DNA of 64,000 nt from a virus (Duplodnaviria; Heunggongvirae; Uroviricota; Caudoviricetes), in IMG/VR virus record IMGVR_UViG_3300022821_000011, positions 13,134 to 77,133 of that record; one strand, written 5' to 3'. The translations under genes were made by a program, and so were the position numbers. This document shows, one piece after another, positions 5,336-63,047 of the stretch (its first letter is position 1; every line of letters starts with the position of its first letter). A model generated the notes under the pieces. The model was not told the DNA's origin. It did not search any database and saw only the letters and a program-made list of their open reading frames with translations.

Positions 5336-5529
5336 TTAATCTCTCACATATAAACCATAAATTTCAACATTAAGATGCTCATCACCATCTTCTAAAATCT
5401 TCTGCTTTTCATTACTAGCATTCATATAATTTCTATGAATGCTAAAAATTCTCATGGGATTCAAGCGATAAACGACAAACATCATTTCTTTATCTGTATT
5501 TTCTATTAACATTATTCCTTAAAGCTTTC

Positions 5530-5815
5530 ATTTTAAGTAAATCTGGAATTGATTCTTGACTTGCCAACTGACTTGATCCCAGACTTGATCGCCGACTTGA
5601 TCATTGACTTGATTCCAGACTTGAACTCTTAAACTTTTCATATCAAAGCATTCCTGACTTGATTCCTGGCTTGAGTCCTGACTTGATTCCTGACTTGATT
5701 TTCGACTTGAGTCCAGACTTGAGTCACGACTTGATTCCAAACTTGATTTTCGACTTGATCGCTGACTTGATAATTGACTTGATAATTGGTTTGATCATTG
5801 ATTAGATTCTTTAAA
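5530..5815. repeat. Second array of 12-bp GACTTGATTCNN tandem repeats, paralogous to 107..300
   Basis: Same repeat unit. Minus-strand ORFs 5528..5740 and 5638..5823 encode MKNLKNL-(xxQV)n. Confidence 0.8.
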
Positions 5816-5900
5816 TTTTTCATACTAAATAATTACAAACTTGATTACCGACTTGAGTCCAAACTTGATCTCTAATGTTATTCTTTACACTTTTAATAAA

Positions 5901-5954: not shown

Positions 5955-6033
5955 TGGAGAGCCAGGTGGGGCTCGAACCCACGTAAGACAGAGATTAAGA
6001 GTCTCTCGCTACAACCGACTCAGCTACTGGCCC
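5955..6033 (-). tRNA. tRNA; probable anticodon CUU (Lys), with a 7-nt variable region
   Basis: Acceptor GGGCCAG/CTGGCTC, anticodon stem AGAGA/TCTCT, loop CTCTTAA, T-arm GTGGG-TTCGAGC-CCCAC, CCA encoded. Confidence 0.55.
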
Positions 6034-6038
6034 ATTTA

Positions 6039-6551
6039 TTATTTTCCGCTATTTCCATTACCGCCACCGCCATTACTAGACCCGCCGCCCTGGCCATTAT
6101 TCCCACCACCATTGCCGGTGCCTGGACCAGATCCGCCATTATTACCGCCGCCGTTGCCAGGATTACCAGCATTTCCATTACCATTACCAGGACCCGAGCC
6201 GCCGTTTCCATTTCCATTTCCGTTATCTGATCCAGATCCGCCGTTTCCATTTCCGTTATCTGATCCAGATCCGCTGTTTCCATTTCCGTTATCTGATCCA
6301 GATCCACCATGATCCGATCCACCGTTTCCGTTACCTGATCCACCGTTTCCGTTACCTGATCCGCCATGACCTGATCCACCATGACCATCACCATGACCTG
6401 ATCCACCATGACCTGATCCGCCATGACCCGATCCGCCATGACCTGATCCGCCATGACCTGATCCACCATGACCATCACCATGACCTGATCCACCATCTGA
6501 TCGAGAAGAAGAACCAAGGCCAATATTTCCGCCAACACCTTCACATCTCAA
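6039..6551 (-). CDS. Gly/His/Asn-rich low-complexity repeat protein (GGSGHGG repeats). It is in-frame with an upstream signal-peptide ORF (6561..6674) across a single TAG codon
   Basis: Translation from ATG 6674 gives MKNIIIMSAIILASSTSLAVASDYCDRLSTETGAFHIQ, then stop, then FELRCEGVGGNIG... in the same frame. Confidence 0.5.
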   Translation of the reverse strand: MRCEGVGGNIGLGSSSRSDGGSGHGDGHGGSGHGGSGHGGSGHGGSGHGGSGHGDGHGGSGHGGSGNGNGGSGNGNGGSDHGGSGSDNGNGNSGSGSDNGNGNGGSGSDNGNGNGNGGSGPGNGNGNAGNPGNGGGNNGGSGPGTGNGGGNNGQGGGSSNGGGGNGNSGK

Positions 6552-7521
6552 TTCAAACTATTGAATATGAAAAGCGCCTGTTTCAGTTGATAGCCTATCG
6601 CAATAATCACTAGCAACTGCTAAAGAAGTAGAAGAAGCCAAAATAATAGCTGACATTATAATAATATTTTTCATTTGTTTCACTTTCATTTGTTTAATTT
6701 TCACTTGTTTAATTTTAATTAATCGACGAAATCGCTAAGATTTGCTTTCCAATTATCAATCTTTCCATATTCATTAATATTCATAATAACATAATCGCCA
6801 TATCCAGGCCCACCTGGTGACATAGAACTAATAACATATGAATCATCCAATCTTTTAACTGGTACATTAATATCATCAAGAAGAGTATATACGCCAGCAT
6901 CACACACTTTATAATGTATCTTAGCTGTTTTTCCAGCTTCCCAATTTGTAATAATACCAGTTTCCAAATCGATGGTAGGTTCCCAGCAATCATTACGCCG
7001 ACATGGAATAAGAGAACCGTCTGTATCTTCTACTCCATTTACTTTACCATCCTCCCAATATCTAACTCCACACGAAGCTTTAAGATATTTCACATCTTTA
7101 ACTACGGTTTCTGTTATTTCAATTTTCATTATCTACAATCCATTCTATAAGTTGTTGTTTAGCTTCTTTGGTCATTGTAAAATTTAAAAATTCAGTTTGA
7201 GAATCTAATCGAATGTATAACTCACCATCATCTTCTTTTTCAATACTAAAGTCTGTAGAACTTCTAGGTCCATATACTATAAATTCTTTTTTACTTTTAA
7301 TAATATCCATATAATCTCATTTCATGTATTTTCGATGATCCACTTTTTAAGTTCTGAAAGTTCTCTTGGAGACAAATCAATAAGTTCTTCAGAACCTCCA
7401 ATATTAATTGTAACAAGTAAATTACCATCGTCACACATAAATAATTCTAAATCATCTCGAATATGCTTTTTAATAATAATTCTTTTGTTATTTTTAATAA
7501 TATCCATTTTATTCTCCAAAT

Positions 7522-7617: not shown

Positions 7618-7711
7618 TGGTACTCCCACCAGGATTCGAACCTGGGACGCTCTCTAATCTGGAGACGATGCTGAATATAAGTCAGGTGTTTTACCGCTAA
7701 ACTATGGGAGT
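7618..7711 (-). tRNA. Type II tRNA with a long variable arm; apparent anticodon UAU from loop CTTATAT, so identity is unclear (Leu, Tyr or Ser class)
   Basis: Acceptor ACTCCCA/TGGGAGT plus ACCA, T-arm CCAGG-TTCGAAT-CCTGG, 94 nt. Confidence 0.6.
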
Positions 7712-7843: not shown

Positions 7844-10099
7844 TCAGGATTTCAGGATTTCAGGAACCGATGTTTTATTTGATACAAATTCAAATCCAAG
7901 ATCATCATCTTTTATGACTACCTTAACTTTACCACCATTCATCAACTTGCCAAACAAAACTTCTTCTGCAAGTGGTTGCTTGATGTATTTCTGTATCACT
8001 CGAGCCAATGGACGCGCTCCCATTTGTTCATCATAACCTTTTTCAGCCAACCAATCTCTTGCTTTATCTGAAAGGTCAATAATAATCTCTCTTTCAGAAA
8101 GCTGATTTTCTAATTGATTAACAAATTTATCAACGATGGTACGAACAATTTCTGGCGTTAGATGTGAAAAGCTTACAATTGAATCCAAACGATTTCTAAA
8201 TTCAGGAGCAAAAAGCATATTGATAGCTTCTATATCATCACCTTCTCTTTTGTTTTGAGTAAAACCAAAGGCCGAGGCTGCTAGATTTTGAGCACCAGCA
8301 TTTGTAGTCATAATCAAAATCACATTACGGAAATTTACTGTTTTTCCATTGTTGTCTGTCAACTGACCATTATCCATCACCTGCAATAAAATATTAAAGA
8401 TGGCCGGATGGGCTTTCTCGATTTCGTCGAGAAGGAGAACGCAGTGAGGGTTTTGATCTACACTATCTGTAAGCAATCCACCCTGATCGAACCCAACATA
8501 TCCAGGAGGTGCTCCAATAAGACGGGATACACTATGCGACTCCATATATTCTGACATGTCAAATCTAATAAGATTTACATTAAGAGAATCAGATAGCTGC
8601 TTGGCCACTTCAGTTTTACCGACACCAGTCGGACCCGAGAACAAATAACAGCCAACTGGCTTTTCCATTTCTCTCAATCCAGCTCTAGAAGTCATAATTG
8701 AAGAAACCAAAGCATCAATTGCACTATTTTGACCGAAAACAGATCTTTTCATTTCGCCGGCCAAATCTTTTAGCAAACTACGATCATCTTGAGATATATT
8801 CTTAGAAGGTATTCTTGCAATTTTTGCAATAATATTTTCAATATCAACTACTTCAATTATCTTTTTTCTTTTATCTTCAGTGAACAGCATTTGCGCTGCA
8901 CCAGACTCATCAATCACATCAATTGCTTTATCTGGCAACTTACGATCATGAATATATCTTGAAGATAATTCTACAGCAGATTTTATAGCATCTTCAGTAT
9001 ATTCAACCTTATGAAAATTTTCATATCGAGATTTAAGACCATTCAAAATCTTAATAGCGTCTGCAATAGATGGTTCTTTAACATCTATTTTTTGAAAACG
9101 ACGAACAAGAGCTTTATCCTTCTCAAAATGCTGACGATATTCAGCATATGTGGTTGAACCAATACATCTCAATTCACCAGAAGCCAATGCTGGCTTTAAC
9201 AAATTAGAAGCATCCATTGCTCCGCCGCCAGTTGCGCCGGCTCCAATTAACATATGAATTTCATCAATAAACATAATAGCATTATCATGTTCTTTAATTT
9301 CATTTATAACCGCTTTAATTCTTTCTTCGAAATCTCCACGAAAACGAGCTCCGGCCATCATAGCGCCAAGATCAAGTGAAAAAATCGTACAATCAGAAAT
9401 CACTTCTGGAACTGCTTTGTCAACAATCAATTGGGCTATACCTTCAGCAATTGCTGTTTTACCAACACCAGGATCACCAACAAACAATGGATTGTTTTTC
9501 TTTCGACGGCAAAGAACCTGAATTGTGCGTTCGATTTCTTCTTCTCTACCAATAAGTGGATCAATTTTGCCATCAATAGCTTTTTTATTCAGATCAACAC
9601 AATATTTATCAAGAGCAGATTCGTCGTCGCCTCGCATCATTTCTTCATTACCAACATATTCCATTTCTTTATCTGATTTAGAAATTGCATTCACTATATT
9701 TTCTCGAGATATTCCAAATTCAGTCAAAAGAGTAACAGCATAACTATCTTTTTCTGCAAAGAGAGCAAGAAGAACATCTGAACCATTTACTTGTTCTCTG
9801 CCAGAAGATTGAACCATCACAACTGCTCTTTGAATTACTCGTTGAGCTGAGGCAGTAGGTTCAGGAACTTTTGCTGTATTTGAAGATGAATTATTTGAAG
9901 AGTCTTGAATATACTTATCTAAAGATACGCGTAATTCTCCTATACTTATTCCACATTTTACTATTACAGAAGAAGAACTCTTATTGTCTGTAAGAGCAAA
10001 AAGAAGATGTTCAAGTGTTATATATTCATGAGACATATTAGTTGCTAAAACAACTGCATCATGAAATGTCTTTTCTAAATTTTTAGCAAACGATGGCAT
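7844..10099 (-). CDS. clpA: ClpA-like double-ring AAA+ unfoldase/chaperone (Clp N-domain plus two AAA+ modules)
   Basis: N-domain [10 protein letters not shown]; Walker A GDPGVGKT (D1) and GPTGVGKT (D2); 751 aa with no long ClpB-type middle domain; SD AGGAG. Confidence 0.8.
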
Positions 10100-28060: not shown

Positions 28061-29398
28061 TTATAGCTTAGCCCTTTCTCTAACTTCTTCAAATGTGGTT
28101 TCATTATACATATAACCATGTGAATATCTTTTCTTAAAAGAGCTATTTGTAATAAGACCAGCCTTAGATGCTTTTGAGCGATCTGTGATTGGATCTTTCT
28201 TTACATCAAACCAAACAACACCATTATACGATGCAGAACTAGTTTTCATTGCAAAGCTTAGATCATCTCTATTTACTTTTTGAAGCAAACCACCGCCCAT
28301 ACCAAAGGCCCAATTTTCTACACTAATTCCTCTATCTATAAGCTCTTTCACACATTCACGAATAGTATCAATATTGCATCCATCGCCCTGAATCGCACGA
28401 ACGCAGTCTTCAAAAACGATAAAACCTTTATTGTTAACAGTATAATTATCAAACGATTTAAGAATTCTTTCAGAAACCTGGCCAATCATCGATGAAATTG
28501 GACTGCCACTATCTGGTCTAATCACAAGAGTTCCACCAGAATTACGAACTTTTTCTTTCAACTTATTACCCCACCCTTCGGTGATTGCTTCCCAGATGTT
28601 ATAACTATCTGATACGCAAGAATAAAGAGCGTTGGTTTTTGCATAAGTATCTAAAAAATGTTCAAACATTTCATATTCACGGTCCTTGCCCCAACAAGTT
28701 ACAGTCGAATGCTCACTAGCAGGAATAGAAAAACCAGCCATATCTTCACCATAATATACTTTGGCAGCTTCTAAAGCTTCGACTGTATCGGTTCCCATAA
28801 AGTTAATCAAATGAGCCATGCCGCCCAATGCAGCTGATTCGCCAGAAGTCGCTCCCCTACCGCCAAAGTCATGTAACTTAAACGCGATCTGGCCATCTGG
28901 ATCATCGCACGATTCTTGCAAACCAGCATATATAATCTTTTTTACTTCACGTGACACAGTCGCTACAGTTGATGGATACCATATTGCTCTATGGAGCGCA
29001 GTTTCAATAAAGGCTGGAAGCCATGGAAACCTATCATCTGCGTTTCTTACTTCTAGAAGAGGTGTTCCCAATGGAACTACGGTGCCTTCGTCGATAGCAG
29101 AAATTTGAATAGGAAGAAAACCATCAAACTCATTAACGATTATGTCCCATCCTTCTCTATCAAAAGGAAGGCCATGAGCAGTAATTCTCTTTTCTGCATA
29201 ATCAATATCTTCTTTTACAATTGGATCTAATAGATATTCTTTTAGATATGATTGCAGGCCAAAGTAAACCATAGAATCAAACTTATTTGATTTTCTTCCT
29301 TCGAGATATGAACTCATATACTTGATATTAGGATCAATAAGTTTTGAATGAGAAAATTTGTAACTGTCTGTAGATAAAATAAAATTTCTTTTTAGCAC
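28061..29398 (-). CDS. nadV: Nicotinamide phosphoribosyltransferase (NadV/Nampt)
   Basis: MLKRNFILSTDSYKFSHSKL... NAPRTase family; 445 aa. Confidence 0.8.
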   Translation of the reverse strand: MLKRNFILSTDSYKFSHSKLIDPNIKYMSSYLEGRKSNKFDSMVYFGLQSYLKEYLLDPIVKEDIDYAEKRITAHGLPFDREGWDIIVNEFDGFLPIQISAIDEGTVVPLGTPLLEVRNADDRFPWLPAFIETALHRAIWYPSTVATVSREVKKIIYAGLQESCDDPDGQIAFKLHDFGGRGATSGESAALGGMAHLINFMGTDTVEALEAAKVYYGEDMAGFSIPASEHSTVTCWGKDREYEMFEHFLDTYAKTNALYSCVSDSYNIWEAITEGWGNKLKEKVRNSGGTLVIRPDSGSPISSMIGQVSERILKSFDNYTVNNKGFIVFEDCVRAIQGDGCNIDTIRECVKELIDRGISVENWAFGMGGGLLQKVNRDDLSFAMKTSSASYNGVVWFDVKKDPITDRSKASKAGLITNSSFKKRYSHGYMYNETTFEEVRERAKL

Positions 29399-29731
29399 TG
29401 TAATAACTCCTATTACGTTTATGTTTAAATTTTTACCACCACCAATGAATTAAAACATCTCCAGTGATACTGCATTTTTTAAAATAATCAGAAATAATTG
29501 GATATTCTTCAGACAATTCTGCCTCATCCCAACTAAAATAATAATAATCATTTCCAAGTTCATGATCTTGCCATAATCTTTTAACTTCTTCTTCAACTTC
29601 TACTGGACAATCCGTCCACTGAGCATCAAAAACAAGTTTTGCACTAAATGCAGATGGTATATTACTACTATCTACTTCCTGCCATTTGTTAGTTTTATGT
29701 ACGTGGGCAGTAGTTCTTCCTGAATATTTTA

Positions 29732-30811
29732 TCATAATTTCACCATATCATCTATTATATCAAAGTGATCTTCAAAAATAACACCTCTATCGAGATCATT
29801 AAGAGGAATCCATTTCGCTTTTGCAGCATCATCAGAACCTTTTACTTTTGGAAGTTCTTGCATATCCGTCAAATGAATATAATGAGCATGCGTTATAGTT
29901 CTTCCACGCTGAGATCTATATGGATCATCATACACTTTAACTTGTTTAATTGATCCACGAAGAACGGCCGCAGGAACTTTAATTTTTGTTTCTTCTCTTA
30001 GCTCTCTAATCATAGCATCTTCAATAGTTTCAAATTGATTGATGAAACCACCAGGGATTGCTAATTGACCAAGACCAGGCATCGCGCCGCGTTCAATCAT
30101 AAGAATATGACCAGATTGAACCACTACTGCATCTACAGTATTAAAAGTTGGAGGGAACGGTGAATGAGACCAACTTTTCTTATATGAAATCAAATGCTCA
30201 TTTTCAGCTCTTATATATTCAAAGTCTTTTGGGTTTTCTTCAGCCCAGCTTTCAAGATATTCAACTACTGCTATTGGCATCTCAGCAGCTCTTCTTGGAA
30301 ACATAAGAGTCCAAGGATTAAACAAATCTTCTCTAACAGTTGTAGCATCAAGAACTACATATTGTTCAACATTTTCACTTCCCCATTGAGGAAATAAATT
30401 AAGATAAAAAGATGAATGATCTTTTGCGTGACCAATCAATCCAATTTTTGTGGGTCCGGCTTTCCATTTTTTATTAATGATATGATTGACTTGACCTTGA
30501 ATACTAGAAACCCACTTATCTAAATTATAAGTATAATCTTCTTGATATGCAAAATCTATAGCAGAACTATAAGCAGCAACACGATCAAATAAATCAGTGC
30601 CTCTAGTTATTTCCATCATAGAATCAAGAATCATTTGTTTTCTTTCTTGACTAGTCCAAGGGTTACGTAATGATCTAGGCTGGTTGTGCGAGCCCAATAC
30701 TATAATAATTTTTTCGGAAAGTTCTAGTGCTCTTCTGATAACATTTAAATGTCCATTGTGCACTGGCTGAAATCGGCCTATAAAGACCAGATAATCGTAT
30801 TTGTATGACAT
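29732..30811 (-). CDS. nadM: Bifunctional NMN adenylyltransferase (NadM-type) plus Nudix ADP-ribose pyrophosphatase
   Basis: FIGRFQPVHNGHL nucleotidyltransferase motif and Nudix box IRELREETKIKV. A T4-late-like TATAAATA sits 38 nt upstream, with SD AAGGGAG. Confidence 0.8.
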   Translation of the reverse strand: MSYKYDYLVFIGRFQPVHNGHLNVIRRALELSEKIIIVLGSHNQPRSLRNPWTSQERKQMILDSMMEITRGTDLFDRVAAYSSAIDFAYQEDYTYNLDKWVSSIQGQVNHIINKKWKAGPTKIGLIGHAKDHSSFYLNLFPQWGSENVEQYVVLDATTVREDLFNPWTLMFPRRAAEMPIAVVEYLESWAEENPKDFEYIRAENEHLISYKKSWSHSPFPPTFNTVDAVVVQSGHILMIERGAMPGLGQLAIPGGFINQFETIEDAMIRELREETKIKVPAAVLRGSIKQVKVYDDPYRSQRGRTITHAHYIHLTDMQELPKVKGSDDAAKAKWIPLNDLDRGVIFEDHFDIIDDMVKL

Positions 30812-48367: not shown

Positions 48368-49186
48368 TTATTCTATTTTAGAACTAGATAAATCTTTTGT
48401 AGATCTATTTGTTTTCTTCTTTAACTGACTTGGATCTGCTGTTGCAGAAGCTCCAATAGAAGCTAAATCTTGTAACGACCCTCCAAATATATAAGTGCCA
48501 ACGTGATTCATCTTCATCCATGGGCAGAACCAGACTTTACCACCTGCTTTTTGCACATCATAACAGAAAAGATAATCCTCAGATAAATATCTTCTAGAAT
48601 CTGGATCAATTGCAGCCTGGAAGAACATATGAATTTCTCTATCACCACTAAAGTGTTCTGTTCTAACATGATCTGGTTTATAGCTTTTTTCTGGATAAGA
48701 CTTCATATAATCTTCAAATGTTTTACGTCTGATCATCATGAAACCAGTTCCAATTTCTAAAACTTCTACTGGCTTATGAAGAGAAATCGAACCACTGCCC
48801 TGTTTTGGATTAAATACATAATCACCAACATACTTTTCAAGAACATTTGGGTCATCATCAGCAACACCACGATCTACAGCAAGTTTAATTTTTTCCCACG
48901 AAATACACTTCTTCGGATATGGCCCACCAATTACATCATATTCTGATTCGTCAGTCTGAAGAGCTAAAAGAGCTAATACATCTTTTGGATCAAATCCAAT
49001 GTCAGAATCGATAAACATAAGATGAGTCGCGCCAGATCTCATGAATTCATCACAACAATAATTTCTTGCACGAGTGACAAGAGATTCATTAAAAAGAAAA
49101 TACATCTGTAATGGAATTTGATATTGGGCGCACATAGCAGAAAGATCTGCAATCGATCTAGCAAACATTCCTGCACAATTTCCCAT
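48368..49186 (-). CDS. Putative GT-A-fold glycosyltransferase (DxD motif in LMFIDSDIGF)
   Basis: Motif-level only. Confidence 0.35.
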   Translation of the reverse strand: MGNCAGMFARSIADLSAMCAQYQIPLQMYFLFNESLVTRARNYCCDEFMRSGATHLMFIDSDIGFDPKDVLALLALQTDESEYDVIGGPYPKKCISWEKIKLAVDRGVADDDPNVLEKYVGDYVFNPKQGSGSISLHKPVEVLEIGTGFMMIRRKTFEDYMKSYPEKSYKPDHVRTEHFSGDREIHMFFQAAIDPDSRRYLSEDYLFCYDVQKAGGKVWFCPWMKMNHVGTYIFGGSLQDLASIGASATADPSQLKKKTNRSTKDLSSSKIE

Positions 49187-49544
49187 TTATATTCGCATAG
49201 ATTCGTAATATCTATACCGCTTTCGCTGCTTTATATTGCTATAAAGATTAGACTATATCTTCATCCCAATTTATTGGGAGCTGGGCGCTTCGAAAACCAT
49301 GTACTTGTTTTCTACTCCTTTCGGATAGTCGTTGAACCTTCCATTTTTCAATGGCTTGGCTGCTGATAATCCACGCGGGACGTCCCAGCAATTCACCCAG
49401 TTATCATCTTTAAATTACTTTAAAGTGAGGCAGATTTACCATACATAGGAGTTGCAATGAACAATTTCTTTTTTCTTAATTCTTCAATTGGAACTTTTAA
49501 TTGAAATCCTTGATTTGGTGCTTGTTCTTCTTTTTGTTCTTCAC

Positions 49545-49895
49545 TCATTCTTTTTTATTCCCTAAGTTATTTACATCATGGTTGTGTAATTGTATCATTG
49601 TGTAATGAATAATTTTTAAAAGATCATTACGATTATACCCAGCTTTTCGCCCATATCTTTGAGCATATTTTAAAATATTTCCCATACAAAAACCAGTGCC
49701 GTGACCGGAGTCCAAAATGAACTCCGTGGCTTGATACTTGTTTGAAGAATAATGTTCTTGATAAGTTGAGTCAACATATTGTTGCATCTCATCAATATAT
49801 TTATTCTCATTATATTTGTAATTTGGGGATTCGTCTGGAAATATCGTAAATTTGATTCCAGGTTTTGTTGTTTTATTCATTTCATCATCTTTCAT
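49545..49895 (-). CDS. DUF3310-like phage protein, with a T4-type late promoter TATAAATA 18 nt upstream
   Basis: Plus-strand tatttata at 49913-49920. Confidence 0.4.
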   Translation of the reverse strand: MKDDEMNKTTKPGIKFTIFPDESPNYKYNENKYIDEMQQYVDSTYQEHYSSNKYQATEFILDSGHGTGFCMGNILKYAQRYGRKAGYNRNDLLKIIHYTMIQLHNHDVNNLGNKKE

Positions 49896-52933: not shown

Positions 52934-54016
52934 TTATACAAAAAAACTATCTAATGTGGACCCACTCTTTTTTTCTTCTATTTGACTAGCAATATCAAAA
53001 AATGAATCAAAGGTTAATGGAAGCATTCTTTTTTCTTGAGCTTTTGGATTATCTTTAATTCCTAAAAAGCAATTAAATTGACAGAAGGTTATTTCAGTTC
53101 CAAATGTAGTTAATTTACCACCACGTTCTAAATTATTTTGAAACCAAAATAAGTCAGAATCTTTTAAATCAAAAAACTCATACTGATGTTTCTTAACAGA
53201 CACAATAAATTTTTCCATTATAGAATTATTTGAAAACTTAACATCTGGAAAAACGAACTCAAGACCTCTTTTTGCTCCTGGACCAACTAAACAATAATCT
53301 TCATCTTCATCTATATGAGAAAGATCTATACTTCTAGAAAAATTACAGGGAGGATGATAAGAAAAATAAGGACCTATTCCACGATGCTGTAAAAGCCAAT
53401 CACAGACATCTTTAAGTTTAGATTCTGGATTTTGAACCACATCACTCATTCCCTGTCGATCTAGTTCTTCTATCCATCTTATCATATGAGATAATTTAAA
53501 TGGAGCTTCTTCATTTTGCTCTTGAATTCTAACAAAATTTCTTGCTGCTGTTTGAAGACTTGTTTGGAGCTGAGTAGCTCCCCACACTTTAGTCTTAAAG
53601 CGATTTTCATCTAAATTTTTATTGATAAAATCATAATATTCTTCATGTTTAGAATATTCATCAAAATTTATAATATTTGAATAATCAGAAGAATCTGTAG
53701 CCACTAAAGTTAGTGTTGGCATCCCAACAAATTTAACAGCCATAGCATTTAAAATTTTGTTTTTCATAGAAGTTTCTTGATTAAAAACAAAATTTTCTAA
53801 CCAAAAAACTTCAGCATGTTTAGATCTATTTGGATTCCAATATGAAACAGCTGGTCTCATAGCAGATCCAAATAAATCTGAAACATCATACTCTTCTAAT
53901 CTATTTGATTCTCTTAGATATTCTCGTTTAAAGAAATCGATAACCCAATCTCTAAAATAAGAAAAATTATCAGCATTTTTAAAAGAATTTAATTCTGATA
54001 AGTTAAATGTATTCAT
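52934..54016 (-). CDS. Hypothetical 360-aa protein in the modification cluster
   Basis: No recognisable motifs. Confidence 0.3.
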   Translation of the reverse strand: MNTFNLSELNSFKNADNFSYFRDWVIDFFKREYLRESNRLEEYDVSDLFGSAMRPAVSYWNPNRSKHAEVFWLENFVFNQETSMKNKILNAMAVKFVGMPTLTLVATDSSDYSNIINFDEYSKHEEYYDFINKNLDENRFKTKVWGATQLQTSLQTAARNFVRIQEQNEEAPFKLSHMIRWIEELDRQGMSDVVQNPESKLKDVCDWLLQHRGIGPYFSYHPPCNFSRSIDLSHIDEDEDYCLVGPGAKRGLEFVFPDVKFSNNSIMEKFIVSVKKHQYEFFDLKDSDLFWFQNNLERGGKLTTFGTEITFCQFNCFLGIKDNPKAQEKRMLPLTFDSFFDIASQIEEKKSGSTLDSFFV

Positions 54017-55777: not shown

Positions 55778-56266
55778 TTACTCTTTAGTGTCTGCATATT
55801 TAATAATAATCACTTCAATATTTGATTCATTATATAATTTCTCAGATTTTAACCATTCTTCGTTCCAATGATCTGATTTATAAATATCTTCTTCTCTTAT
55901 TACAACTGTATTTATGCCAGATTGAATAATAGACAAAGCACATTTTGAACATGTAGGAAGACCACACGAATAAAGCGTAGAATCTTTTAAAGAAACTCCA
56001 ATCAAATTCGCATTATGCATTGCATTTAATTCAGCATGAATAGTCAATCCATATTTAACTTCTCTATTATTTAGTCTTTCCTCGGTATCATCAATTCCTC
56101 TTGGAAACCCATTATAACCAGTTGATAATATCTGGCCTGTTTCTGGAAACACTACTACAGCACCTACACAAGTAGACGGATCTTTACTCCATGTTGAAAC
56201 AGACTTAGCAAGATTCATATATCTAATATGCCATTTTAAACTAGTGTACATACTTATCACCAACAA
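55778..56266 (-). CDS. cd: dCMP deaminase
   Basis: HAELNAM plus the PTCSKCA zinc-binding motif. Confidence 0.8.
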   Translation of the reverse strand: MLVISMYTSLKWHIRYMNLAKSVSTWSKDPSTCVGAVVVFPETGQILSTGYNGFPRGIDDTEERLNNREVKYGLTIHAELNAMHNANLIGVSLKDSTLYSCGLPTCSKCALSIIQSGINTVVIREEDIYKSDHWNEEWLKSEKLYNESNIEVIIIKYADTKE

Positions 56267-56421: not shown

Positions 56422-57150
56422 TTAATCATTTCCCCACACTTTCTCATATTCTTCTTTTGTTATACTAGAAAGTCTAAGTTTATCCCAGGCTTCAACCATC
56501 CAAAAATGTTTTTCATAAATATGAAGAGAACCAACTTGCCAAATAATTTTATGAGAAGTGAGACGCAATGAAGTTGAAACCAAACCAGCTACATAATCCT
56601 GCCAAGCATAATCATTACGATAGCCAAACACCACATCATTGCTTCTCATTTGTACAATAACAACAAGCTCGTCATTTCTTATGAGATATTGAACAGTATT
56701 TGTACAAATAAAATCTGACATTCCATCTCTATTATAATCAGTATGCATAGTAGGTCTAGTATATATCATAATAGCTCTACGAGAATCTGGATTTAATCTT
56801 AATTCTTTTACTACATTCCAATACTGAGCACCATTATGATGAGTACAATTATTTGAATCAGACCAAACACACCAACCATAATTAGAATTAATTTCTCCAG
56901 ATGGCGTAGAAACACTTTGCCAAATAGCTGGAACTTTTCCTTCTATATCATCAACATTGAGAGACATACTATTATACCAATTTAGCTCTCTTTTAATATA
57001 CTCATGATTTAACGGTCCAAATATTAACGGCTCATTAGCTTCGAAAGAAGCTCCTTGAATTTCAAGAGTTTTAACGCTGGTTTTATCTATAACAAAATTT
57101 TCATTTGCTAATTCATCTGAAAATGAATTTCTAATATATTCTACATTCAT
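56422..57150 (-). CDS. gp42: dCMP hydroxymethylase (T4 gp42-like)
   Basis: VIDKTSVKTLEIQGASFEANEPLIFG...EINSNYGWCVW...NPDSRRAIMIYTRP...GMSDFICTNTVQYLIR...MRSNDVVFGYRNDYAWQ...GSLHIY is near-collinear with T4 gp42. Confidence 0.9.
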   Translation of the reverse strand: MNVEYIRNSFSDELANENFVIDKTSVKTLEIQGASFEANEPLIFGPLNHEYIKRELNWYNSMSLNVDDIEGKVPAIWQSVSTPSGEINSNYGWCVWSDSNNCTHHNGAQYWNVVKELRLNPDSRRAIMIYTRPTMHTDYNRDGMSDFICTNTVQYLIRNDELVVIVQMRSNDVVFGYRNDYAWQDYVAGLVSTSLRLTSHKIIWQVGSLHIYEKHFWMVEAWDKLRLSSITKEEYEKVWGND

Positions 57151-62129: not shown

Positions 62130-62500
62130 CTTGATCAAAATAAATTATTAGACGAACCCAAACTAAATTTATTGGAGTATTCTGTTGCTAGGCTACTCCA
62201 GGCCCCAGTACTCTAGTTTCTAATCCACAAAGGGATCAGGCAGCAAGAGCCAAAGGTGCAAAGTTATCGTTTGCGTTTAGTTTCTAGCCAGTCGGCCAAC
62301 CAGTTAACTCCAGTTACTCATTACGCACCCAATCGATCCCAGTTCATCCCCATCAAAAGAAGTGCGACCTTTGTGCACCAAGTCTTTTCAAACACCAATA
62401 GAATATTCTAGCACTTCTTTTGGTGGAGATGGGCGGATTCGAACCGCCGTGTTAAGTGTTTTTTGTTTCCTTCAACGTCAACATATTATTTATATCACAT
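62130..62500 (-). ncRNA. ssrA: Two-piece (circularly permuted) tmRNA gene. The acceptor piece (T-arm GGCGG-TTCGAAT-CCGCC, CATCTCC, ACCA) lies upstream of the coding piece (5' GGGGATGAACTGGGATCGA...). Tag reading frame 62274..62236 is GCA AAC GAT AAC TTT GCA CCT TTG GCT CTT GCT GCC TGA, giving ANDNFAPLALAA
   Basis: The 5' GGGGATG pairs with the 3' CATCTCC. A D-loop analogue GGGATCGA is present. The tag ends ALAA followed by a stop. A 10-bp hairpin AAAGAAGTGC...GCACTTCTTT lies between the pieces. The promoter is at 62489..62517. Confidence 0.65.
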
Positions 62501-62517
62501 TATTTGTTTGGTGTCAA
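62489..62517 (-). promoter_or_regulatory. Sigma70-like promoter TTGACA-17-TATAAA driving the tmRNA
   Basis: Plus-strand tgtcaa at 62512-62517. Confidence 0.5.
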
Positions 62518-62519
62518 CA

Positions 62520-63047
62520 CTTATTTAGTTATCTTTAATAATGTATCACCAATTAATTCTTTTTTTGAAAAAAATTGAACACTCCAATCATAATAAAATT
62601 CTCTTCCACGATAATCATGAATAAAGATCAATGGATTCTTTTTTGTAGATTTTATAAAAATTGTAGCTAATGTAGCAGCCCTAGCTATACCATCTACAAA
62701 AACAAATCAGAATCCCATATATCAAATTTAGGATTTATATAATGATCTAAACCGCAAGCCATTTCTTCGTTTGGAGTTGCAAATTTATAAAAATCAATAT
62801 CAACATTTAATTTAAACATTGTATATGAATAGTTCTTTTTTGGTTGTTCTTTTAATTTTTTGCTAACAATAGAATACCATTCTGGATTATGCTCTATTGA
62901 ATATAAAAATTGGGTGTCTTTAAGTTGTTTTAAAAACCATAAAGTAGACCCACCAGATCCCCATTCGACTATTTTAGCATTATCAGGAAGCGCTTTTAAA
63001 GAATTTTCTAAATAATCTAATTCATTGTTTCTCATCAATGGAATCAA
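62520..63047 (-). pseudogene. Class I SAM-dependent methyltransferase-like gene interrupted by a frameshift near the T-run at about 62700
   Basis: ORF 62694..63047 carries VEWGSGGSTLWF (motif I). The alternate frame continues ...DGIARAATLATIFIK...IFIHDYRG. Confidence 0.4.

Follow-up and report, generated by a model that had tools for sequence, protein, structure and literature searches.

An in-frame amber codon in a probable secreted-protein gene of a marine T4-like phage

Layout of the locus

The window analysed here is a 64,000-nucleotide stretch of phage DNA; the features of the locus lie on its minus strand. A short ORF starts at ATG 6674 and reads MKNIIIMSAIILASSTSLAVASDYCDRLSTETGAFHIQ for 38 codons (6674-6561) before ending at TAG (6560-6558). 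Past this codon the same frame stays open for 172 Gly/His/Asn-rich codons (6557-6042, beginning FELRCEGVGGNIGLG...) and closes at the tandem stops TAA TAA (6041-6036). A tRNA-Lys(CUU) gene (5955-6033) begins 2 nt beyond these stops, which places the gene within the context of a tRNA-precursor transcript. A sequence-only reading of this DNA had described an in-frame TAG between a signal-peptide ORF and a Gly/His-rich domain; this layout is confirmed.

The upstream end consists of a leader of 15-nt tandem repeats (6669-6720; about 3.5 copies of AAACAAATGAAAGTG-like units), which yields three in-frame starts (GTG 6704, ATG 6689 and ATG 6674) and encodes the Lys-rich n-region MKVKQMKVKQMKN. Repeat copy number varies among contigs, with a 15-nt indel and ORF variants of 48 and 43 aa. 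Positions 6612-6674 encode MKNIIIMSAIILASSTSLAVA, a predicted Sec signal peptide that would be cleaved after A-V-A. The prediction is based on inspection and on homologue N-termini, with the n/h/c layout and the A-V-A/S cleavage motif judged by eye rather than by a predictor.

The mature protein would open with the 17 residues SDYCDRLSTETGAFHIQ (6561-6611), among them the first cysteine of a pair (TGC, 6602-6600). The amber codon (6558-6560) has the context CAA TAG TTT in all contigs examined. The second cysteine (TGT, 6545-6543) lies on its other side, and TAG thus falls inside the Cys-Cys loop. This cysteine stands at the start of a linker (6195-6557) composed of Gly/His repeats, (GGSGHG)n, followed by Gly/Asn/Asp repeats, (GSGSDNGNGNG)n. 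The linker is predicted to be disordered and carries an 87-nt in-frame length polymorphism (6410-6496). A conserved C-terminal module, GPGNGNGNAGNPGNGGGNNGGSGPGTGNGGGNNGQGGGSSNGGGGNGNSGK (6042-6194), also occurs in secreted proteins of phages and Alphaproteobacteria.

The downstream part contains no in-frame ATG or GTG. Its sole canonical start is TTG (6549-6551), two codons past TAG and a possible re-initiation site; it lacks an SD core, which is present in 40 of the 72 other genes. This bears out the earlier claim that the repeat domain has neither ATG nor SD of its own. The signal-peptide ORF likewise has no SD. The other two frames are shut within about four codons of TAG, so the halves can be joined only by in-frame readthrough; +1 and -1 frameshifting are ruled out from the sequence. 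A frame-2 reading (DQVMA..., like the nearby xxQV-repeat genes) is also rejected, since substitutions relative to homologues fall on frame-1 third positions. An apparent frameshift in an xxQV gene at 5638-5641 is actually the point where two small genes in tandem overlap by ATGA.

A family with a conserved Gly/Asn-rich tail

Two adjacent ORFs share a frame by chance with a probability of 1/3. The present case goes beyond chance frame-sharing because homology places both halves in one gene family; the two ORFs are one ancestral gene. The earlier view of signal peptide and Gly-rich domain as a single gene cut by TAG is upheld, as homologues have the same architecture in one uninterrupted ORF.

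The family is defined by a near-invariant tail of about 50 aa (GPGNGNGN...GSGPGTGNGG..NNGQG), common to 21 representative proteins, 9 IMG/VR loci and 57 bacterial loci. The module follows the pattern GPGNGNGNxGNxGNGGGNxxGSGPG[TS]GNGGxNNGQG, which this phage's gene matches. Uninterrupted homologues occur in viral contigs and in Alphaproteobacteria (mostly Ruegeria). Viral homologues contain signal peptide, Cys pair, Gly-rich linker and tail within a single ORF, and 33 of 41 distinct bacterial members have a hydrophobic, signal-like N-terminal segment. FecR and Flp/Fap are other N-terminal domains occurring in the family. A Cys pair soon after the signal peptide (C-x8-12-C) is common in homologues.

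Two groups of phage contigs are especially informative. Firstly, the homologue on L111/L145 has an N-terminus (MKKFSIIFIASLALSTSSALA/SDGC, the slash marking cleavage) similar to the signal peptide at 6612-6674, and its N-terminal stretch ...ASLALSTSSALASDGC resembles ...AIILASSTSLAVASDYC in this gene. Secondly, L117/L118 encode an intact 163-aa homologue inside a tRNA-rich region with a tRNA directly after it; in L117 this is a tRNA-Leu 13 nt past the stop, the same layout as here. The gene lies in or beside a tRNA region in at least two further phage lineages (L116 and L117/L118).

Like the rest of the family (phage contigs L111-L119; Ruegeria and other Alphaproteobacteria), this gene has the signal peptide, Cys pair, Gly-rich disordered linker, tail and basic C-terminus; like L117, it adjoins a tRNA inside a phage tRNA region. 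It differs in its unusually His-rich linker, (GGSGHG)n, and in a longer Cys loop (18 positions versus about 8-12). It is also the sole member seen with an internal stop. The C-terminal module is present, as are the Cys pair and the Gly-rich low-complexity linker that follows; the signal peptide is in frame but cut from the tail by TAG 6558-6560, and all parts form one polypeptide only upon readthrough. No homologue compared has a stop at this position, and all are uninterrupted; within the family TAG is present only in near-clonal copies of this phage.

Substitutions in the tail are concentrated at third codon positions. Compared with L117, 35 of 36 residues are identical and third positions are changed in 24 of 36 codons, with a single non-synonymous change; compared with L102, mismatches number 6/4/31 at codon positions 1/2/3. 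This pattern indicates that the tail has historically been under strong purifying selection in frame 1. GC content of the Gly-rich ORF by codon position is 0.65/0.69/0.24; its GC3 is like that of other genes of this phage (0.17-0.21) and unlike that of the homologues (0.48-0.71).

The family is not represented in curated collections. Neither half nor the fused product matches Pfam, PHROGs or NCBIfam; there is no Pfam or NCBIfam model for the tail family, and a profile search against PDB sequences gave no match. AlphaFold2 (17-sequence alignment) gives a pLDDT of 49.7 and no secondary structure. Megablast and blastn searches of INPHARED with the locus returned no relative, the single match being to the tRNA-Lys. 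A protein homology search with the Gly-rich ORF was dominated by low-complexity candidates; it did not recover the query and returned two tail homologues. Further family loci were found by a degenerate DNA pattern. The upstream 136-aa neighbour is too widespread to serve as a synteny marker.

The N22 segment of CsgA is Gly/Asn-rich. A curli (CsgA-like) substrate of phage CsgGF pores, an idea drawn from PMC9004378, was considered for this gene and rejected, as no called gene from about -9 kb to +9 kb around the window has a CsgG or CsgF Pfam match.

Fixation and decoding of the TAG

The TAG is genuine and fixed in this phage population. The window shares it, without any difference, with L091, L092/L096, L093, L094, L095, L099 and L110 (8 distinct contigs in all), which represent 8 distinct samples: two JGI metagenomes (3300031227 and the source of Ga0222640) and six ENA assemblies. 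A 62-aa query spanning the junction, searched against a protein collection of about 5.8 billion clusters, matched only the cluster of the truncated 48-aa ORF; all four members of that cluster (on about 16 contigs) terminate after ...FHIQ, and the search found no uninterrupted allele of this gene.

Polymorphism hints that constraint on the gene is now relaxed. Across 9 contigs there are 7 SNPs in 8.4 kb, 5 of them within this gene (these counts are tiny, and repeats are prone to assembly error). Both SNPs in the Gly-rich domain are non-synonymous: AAC>AAA (N>K) and GGC>CGC (G>R, at a conserved tail position). The N-terminal part carries a further S>P variant, and the few SNPs of the gene in these 9 contigs include no synonymous variant.

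The TAG is most likely the mark of a recently broken gene in a marine T4-like phage rather than of a new decoding trick. The preferred explanation, with a probability of roughly 0.55, is a young nonsense pseudogene in which the downstream part has not yet decayed. The intact gene would encode an exported, intrinsically disordered glycine-rich protein, with a predicted layout of signal peptide, short two-Cys loop, Gly/His and Gly/Asn repeats and the conserved GN-rich C-terminal module of about 50 aa; the gene belongs to an uncurated family of large marine phages and Alphaproteobacteria. Ribosomes would normally stop at TAG, since the standard code applies and the tRNA island contains no amber-suppressor tRNA. 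The product would be a 38-aa precursor, leaving a 17-aa peptide once the signal is cleaved, and the Gly-rich domain would be neither made nor exported in meaningful amounts. The gene is presumably inactive at present; its product is likely to be periplasmic or surface-located.

Several observations count against a pseudogene. Firstly, the downstream part shows no decay: its 172 codons are intact with no frameshift or additional stop, TAATAA is kept and the three-base periodicity is sharp. If this is a pseudogene, it must therefore be very young. Secondly, the TAG arose before at least two length polymorphisms, the indels of 87 and 15 nt, and every sample has it; its persistence while the population spread would also be explained by a tolerated or useful stop. 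Both repeat-length alleles are in frame; as the repeat units have lengths divisible by three, this counts only weakly. The sequence-only reading had listed a recent nonsense mutation among its explanations; a nonsense mutation, presumably recent, is the best fit.

Functional readthrough at low frequency is possible, though unlikely. Expression would be tuned down, with a minority of ribosomes making the full exported Gly-rich protein and the majority the short signal-peptide product. TAG could be decoded by a near-cognate tRNA (the phage tRNA-Gln(CUG), for example) or by a suppressor in the unscanned genome or the host. This fits the intact downstream ORF with its strong coding periodicity and double stop, and a TAG that is fixed in all samples and older than the two indels. 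It also fits the Cys pair that straddles the stop, as the family layout is restored only in a readthrough product, and readthrough is the sole way of joining the halves with the other frames closed.

The tRNA complement argues against efficient suppression. The sequence-only reading had counted about 30 tRNAs and raised suppression by one of them; the window contains 26 tRNAs and a tmRNA, with 2-3 further tRNAs just past its left end. ARAGORN and Rfam searches covered the window, 19.5 kb overlapping and passing its left end and 10 kb past its right end, and found no CUA anticodon. The scan amounts to about 83 kb, including the whole tRNA island, of a genome that is probably larger than 140 kb; none of the 28-29 tRNAs in it has a CUA anticodon, and suppression by a phage tRNA from the window or about 10 kb past each end is not supported. 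Within this range the locus combines uninterrupted homologues with the absence of a suppressor tRNA, the combination expected of a simple pseudogene. The phage does encode both tRNA-Gln(UUG) and tRNA-Gln(CUG), which would favour readthrough; however, the L117 phage has both of these and an intact homologue, and the tRNAs are therefore uncorrelated with the stop.

Other features also argue against readthrough. TAG is the normal terminator of 9 of 73 long minus-strand ORFs, including the DNA polymerase (42273), and efficient suppression would extend all nine; at the polymerase it would fuse the protein to the next gene. A further possible sign is that the 126 nt around and after TAG show no significant stimulatory RNA structure (z = -1.15; context CAA-UAG-U). 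In E. coli, a U following UAG is a strong termination context, although this may not hold for the host here. No relative has a stop at this position, and the current polymorphisms are all non-synonymous. Bypass of the T4 gene 60 type is rejected: CAA precedes TAG, no further CAA follows within about 100 nt, there is no coding gap and the frame is continuous.

Two working cistrons are an improbable alternative. The upstream ORF of 38 aa (or 43-48 aa) would make a small membrane or secreted peptide in its own right; ribosomes ending at TAG would start again at TTG 6551, 6 nt further on, and produce a cytoplasmic Gly-rich protein without a signal peptide. The spacing of two codons suits termination-reinitiation coupling, gene callers annotate precisely these two ORFs, the downstream one is intact, and tight coupling is found elsewhere in the genome, as in the ATGA overlap at 5641-5638. 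Against this, the family is overwhelmingly exported, with signal peptide, Cys pair and tail in one polypeptide; a cytoplasmic form would forfeit one cysteine and its cellular location. The TTG also lacks the SD found at 40 of 72 genes, and the short ORF has no stand-alone homologue.

A more novel reading, in which the amber codon is a retained regulatory device rather than damage, is improbable. In this T4-like marine phage, which uses the standard code, a single TAG just after the signal peptide could throttle or time the making of a disordered Gly/His-rich protein for export. The level of readthrough could be set by phage tRNA supply (e.g. near-cognate tRNA-Gln(CUG)) or by a suppressor not yet seen. 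Separately, the GN-rich tail would define an undescribed extracytoplasmic module, present in alphaproteobacteria as well as in their large phages; conservation this extreme points to a putative specific binding partner.

Genome-wide reassignment of TAG (code-15-like, with late genes containing in-frame TAGs) is very unlikely and is effectively refuted for this window. An AT-rich, tRNA-rich genome does match the starting conditions for phage recoding proposed in bioRxiv 10.1101/2021.08.26.457843. Against this, ORFs fill the window and all long ones are intact under the standard code (code 11), TAG terminates the nine ORFs noted above, and the scanned 83 kb contain no suppressor tRNA. A count of in-frame stops found no other interrupted gene in the 64 kb.

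A sequencing or assembly artefact at 6558-6560, perhaps through base modification or nearby repeats, is hardly credible: the gene is rich in repeats, and a 5-hmdU DNA kinase-like enzyme of the phage suggests modified thymidines, but a modified T still reads as T. The 8 distinct contigs, which come from separate samples and from two assembly pipelines, do not differ at TAG or in the unique, non-repetitive sequence on either side of it, and a junction scan with NNN in place of the stop gave no other allele. The sequencing error suggested earlier is thereby set aside.

Significance and comparison with known systems

As a broken accessory gene, the finding carries little weight. It does serve as a caution for annotation: the annotated 48-aa and 170-aa ORFs ought to be joined and marked as a single interrupted gene. 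The gene also brings to light a Gly/Asn-rich C-terminal module, uncurated and very strongly conserved, that is carried by secreted proteins of Ruegeria, other Alphaproteobacteria and large marine phages. Should the TAG prove to be read through, a standard-code phage would offer a rare natural example of amber gating confined to one gene, with a bearing on how stop-codon recoding begins; a regulatory TAG would then be a single-gene forerunner of the recoding that gut phages are known for.

Programmed readthrough produces extended proteins in the Qbeta A1 coat extension and in retroviral gag-pol. The present gene is alike in having a short product with a potential C-terminal extension in the same frame. 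It differs in that relatives do not keep the stop, neither a stimulatory context nor a stimulatory structure is detected, and the short product is little more than a signal peptide.

In T4 gene 60, translational bypassing depends on matched take-off and landing codons that flank a non-coding gap. The resemblance here is that of a T4-like phage with UAG right after a sense codon within a gene. In contrast to gene 60, matching take-off and landing codons are absent, the coding sequence is ungapped and the frame is the same on both sides of the stop.

PMC9523058 and bioRxiv 10.1101/2021.08.26.457843 describe phages that recode TAG to Gln (genetic code 15) and carry suppressor tRNAs of their own. 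Like these, the present phage has an AT-rich genome with many tRNAs and a gene that contains an in-frame TAG. Unlike them, it has one such TAG rather than many and no tRNA-CUA in about 83 kb, and TAG still terminates its genes, including the DNA polymerase. The recoded phages are gut crAss-like or Lak phages, whereas this one is T4-like and of a marine alphaproteobacterial host lineage.

Compared with an ordinary amber pseudogene or natural amber mutant, the gene is unusual in showing no decay downstream and in having a stop fixed in all sampled populations. It is alike in that one stop splits a gene with uninterrupted homologues, the scanned sequence holds no decoding apparatus and current polymorphisms are non-synonymous.

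The interrupted gene

The sequence-only reading placed an in-frame TAG between a signal-peptide ORF and a Gly-rich domain; re-reading the minus strand confirms this layout. The signal-peptide ORF starts at ATG 6674 and opens MKNIIIMSAIILASSTSLAVASDYCDRLSTETGAFHIQ; by inspection only, its N-terminus is Sec-like: the n-region contains Lys, and a hydrophobic core and an A-V-A|S motif follow. Upstream, two more in-frame starts lie in a 15-nt tandem repeat (6669-6720, minus strand). After the amber codon (6560-6558, minus strand), the same frame continues for 172 codons, running from FELRCEGVGGNIGLGSSSRSD through (GGSGHG)n and (GSGSDNGNGNG)n to a Gly/Asn tail. This Gly-rich ORF is closed by a tandem stop, TAA TAA (6041-6036, minus strand), 2 nt from tRNA-Lys(CUU). 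The GC content of the gene region is 52%, compared to 31.7% for the genome; this is explained by its glycine codons.

Each homologue in the viral contigs is one uninterrupted ORF, in which a signal peptide (or lipoprotein signal) and a Cys pair (C-x8-12-C) precede a long low-complexity Gly-rich linker and a conserved C-terminal module of ~50 residues, the tail. The two cysteines of the phage gene flank the TAG, one on each side. The proposal that the two halves belong together is thus borne out: they are one gene. Frameshifting is unable to link them, since both remaining frames are shut a few codons from the TAG.

The Gly-rich frame was under long-lasting selection. Compared with homologous locus L117, 35 of 36 tail residues are identical despite differences at 24 of 36 third codon positions; mismatches at codon positions 1/2/3 number 6/4/31 against L102 and 6/5/31 against L104, two further homologous loci. 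GC at the three codon positions of the 172-codon ORF is 0.65/0.69/0.24; the third-position value resembles the phage's other genes (0.17-0.21), unlike the homologues (0.48-0.71). The gene has thus been in this AT-rich lineage long enough to ameliorate, with its Gly/Asn codons kept. The codon-position patterns of substitution and GC rule out both an alternative frame (DQVMA...) and a non-coding repeat.

Explanations for the amber codon

Looking up the proteins of neighbouring genes by exact match led to near-identical contigs of this phage population in JGI and ENA metagenomes; one additional contig came from a DNA scan that left the stop codon open (NNN). The TAG is present in 8/8 distinct contigs spanning the site (L091, L092/L096, L093, L094, L095, L099, L110). 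With 7 SNPs in 8.4 kb across nine contigs, the population is nearly clonal. Fixation of the TAG is uninformative on long-term conservation of the stop. The TAG is older than two indel polymorphisms.

The most economical reading is the ordinary one that an accessory gene has acquired a real amber mutation, and a young nonsense pseudogene is somewhat favoured (probability about 0.55). The sequence-only reading had tied this outcome to uninterrupted relatives and the lack of a suppressor tRNA, and this combination is found in the sequence reachable. No CUA-anticodon tRNA is present in the window, in a 19.5-kb locus that overlaps and passes its left end or in the 10 kb beyond its right end, a scan that takes in the entire tRNA island plus tRNA-free margins; suppression by a phage tRNA is therefore not upheld. 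The SNPs provide a weak second line: five of seven fall in the gene, which is about 8% of the aligned length, and none is synonymous, though repeat-associated assembly noise may have added to these counts. Within the Gly-rich domain, each of the two SNPs changes an amino acid, in one case an otherwise conserved tail glycine, and the N-terminal part has an S to P variant. This contrasts with the tail's historical 24:1 synonymous:non-synonymous ratio. Against a pseudogene, the downstream ORF shows no decay, and the TAG predates the two indels and is universal in the sampled population.

Functional low-level readthrough would fit an undecayed downstream ORF but is unlikely. There is no unusual RNA structure around or after the TAG (z = -1.15), and in E. 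coli a UAG followed by U is terminated efficiently, although the host of this phage may differ. Gene-60-type hopping is ruled out, as the CAA before the stop has no downstream match.

Slightly more doubtful is an arrangement of two cistrons with re-initiation at TTG 6551, the sole canonical start in the Gly-rich ORF. As previously noted from sequence, this domain lacks its own ATG or Shine-Dalgarno sequence: no in-frame ATG or GTG occurs downstream of the TAG, and the TTG has no Shine-Dalgarno core, which is present in 40/72 other genes.

An artefact at the TAG is highly improbable: a 62-aa junction query against a collection of ~5.8 billion clusters found no uninterrupted allele, matching only the truncated ORF cluster (4/4 sequence variants stop at ...FHIQ), and with the TAG in all contigs the proposed sequencing error is excluded. 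Genome-wide recoding is equally remote, as no other gene in the window is interrupted by an in-frame stop and TAG is the ordinary terminator of 9/73 long minus-strand ORFs, including the DNA polymerase, where readthrough would fuse the enzyme with the next gene.

The phage and its gene content

The window is a portion of a T4-like phage. Its gp43 DNA polymerase is 48% identical to cyanomyovirus gp43; also encoded are the gp45 clamp, the gp44/62 clamp loader, RegA and a gp41-like helicase, with all genes on a single strand. No close relative was found in INPHARED. A permuted two-piece tmRNA of alphaproteobacterial type (62171-62521, minus strand; tag peptide ANDNFAPLALAA) points to an alphaproteobacterial host lineage; such tmRNAs are known in Melnitz-like phages and pelagimyophages (PMC9004378). 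About 5 kb past the window's right end (L107:5119-5496) is a 125-aa RF-1/GGQ-domain-only peptidyl-tRNA hydrolase protein (ArfB/PrfH-like), which lacks codon-recognition domains and so has no bearing on TAG decoding. With the tmRNA, it suggests that the phage may bring its own ribosome-rescue kit.

The phage is tRNA-rich as proposed, with 26 tRNAs in the window instead of about 30. The set in window 1-34661 plus the overlapping contig L096 covers all amino acids but Tyr, and it includes pairs for rare codons ending in G (Lys CUU, Gln CUG, Leu CAA) in a 32% GC genome. At 94 nt, tRNA-Ile(UAU) (7618-7711, minus strand) exceeds the usual length of type I tRNAs and may contain an insertion or intron. 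Strain variant L100 has altered gene content and tRNA-Arg(UCU) left of the window. A full-length, 751-aa ClpA/ClpB-like AAA+ unfoldase (7844-10099, minus strand) lies within the tRNA region.

Other minus-strand features include an NAD salvage module (28061-30811) of a NAMPT-like phosphoribosyltransferase and a bifunctional NMN adenylyltransferase/NUDIX protein. A group I intron (49229-49448; Rfam RF00028, 83.8 bits) lies between ORFs 48368-49186 and 49545-49895, possibly two exons of a single split gene. Adjoining 5-hmdU DNA kinase-like (52934-54016), thymidylate-synthase-like (56422-57150) and dCMP-deaminase (55778-56251) genes, with ThyX and a C5 DNA methylase encoded elsewhere in the window, suggest that the phage DNA may contain hypermodified thymidine. 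Two tandem small (xxQV)n genes of 12-nt repeats (5528-5823; 61 and about 37 aa), overlapping by ATGA at 5641-5638, weakly match PHROG 5189; a strong sigma-70-like promoter match (TTGACA-17-TATATT, 5945-5917) is immediately upstream.

The Gly-rich family

Searching with the Gly-rich ORF gave two proteins with nearly identical C-terminal ~50 residues; a profile search extended this to 21 members among 1.84 billion representative proteins. A degenerate DNA pattern for the tail found 9 loci in IMG/VR and 57 in bacterial genomes, chiefly Ruegeria, with others in Labrys, Microvirga, Brucella pecoris, Hyphomicrobiales and a few Synergistales. The common module is GPGNGNGNxGNxGNGGGNxxGSGPG[TS]GNGGxNNGQG...NGGGG.GN, usually with a basic last residue. 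Ruegeria genomes each carry several paralogues, and single proteins in bacterial and IMG/VR loci (L122-L178, L111-L119) contain 2-4 tandem copies. Alternative N-terminal domains (FecR, Flp/Fap) occur, and 33/41 distinct bacterial members have a hydrophobic, signal-like N-terminal segment.

No model or relative of the tail was found in Pfam, NCBIfam, PHROGs or the PDB, and AlphaFold2 predicts disorder. The intact product is probably an exported, disordered Gly-rich protein, whose invariant GN-rich C-terminal module is presumed to bind a specific partner in the envelope. The (GGSGHG)n linker is unusually His-rich in this phage (10 His residues), which suggests possible metal binding. CsgGF pores are reported in related phages (PMC9004378); a role for Gly-rich proteins as their substrates is unsupported, as no csgG/csgF was found in the window or in about 9 kb to either side of it. 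The novelty lies mainly in this uncharacterised protein family.

The protein of IMG/VR loci L111/L114, labelled viral, is also encoded on a chromosomal contig of Brucella pecoris (L145); the two loci may represent prophage or host DNA that was misclassified. The N-terminus of this protein, MKKFSIIFIASLALSTSSALA|SDGC..., is visibly like that of the phage, MKNIIIMSAIILASSTSLAVA|SDYC.... Contigs L117/L118 (162 and 119 kb) encode an intact 163-aa homologue, followed after 13 nt by tRNA-Leu in a tRNA-rich region; the gene in the window has a tRNA-adjacent position of the same type.
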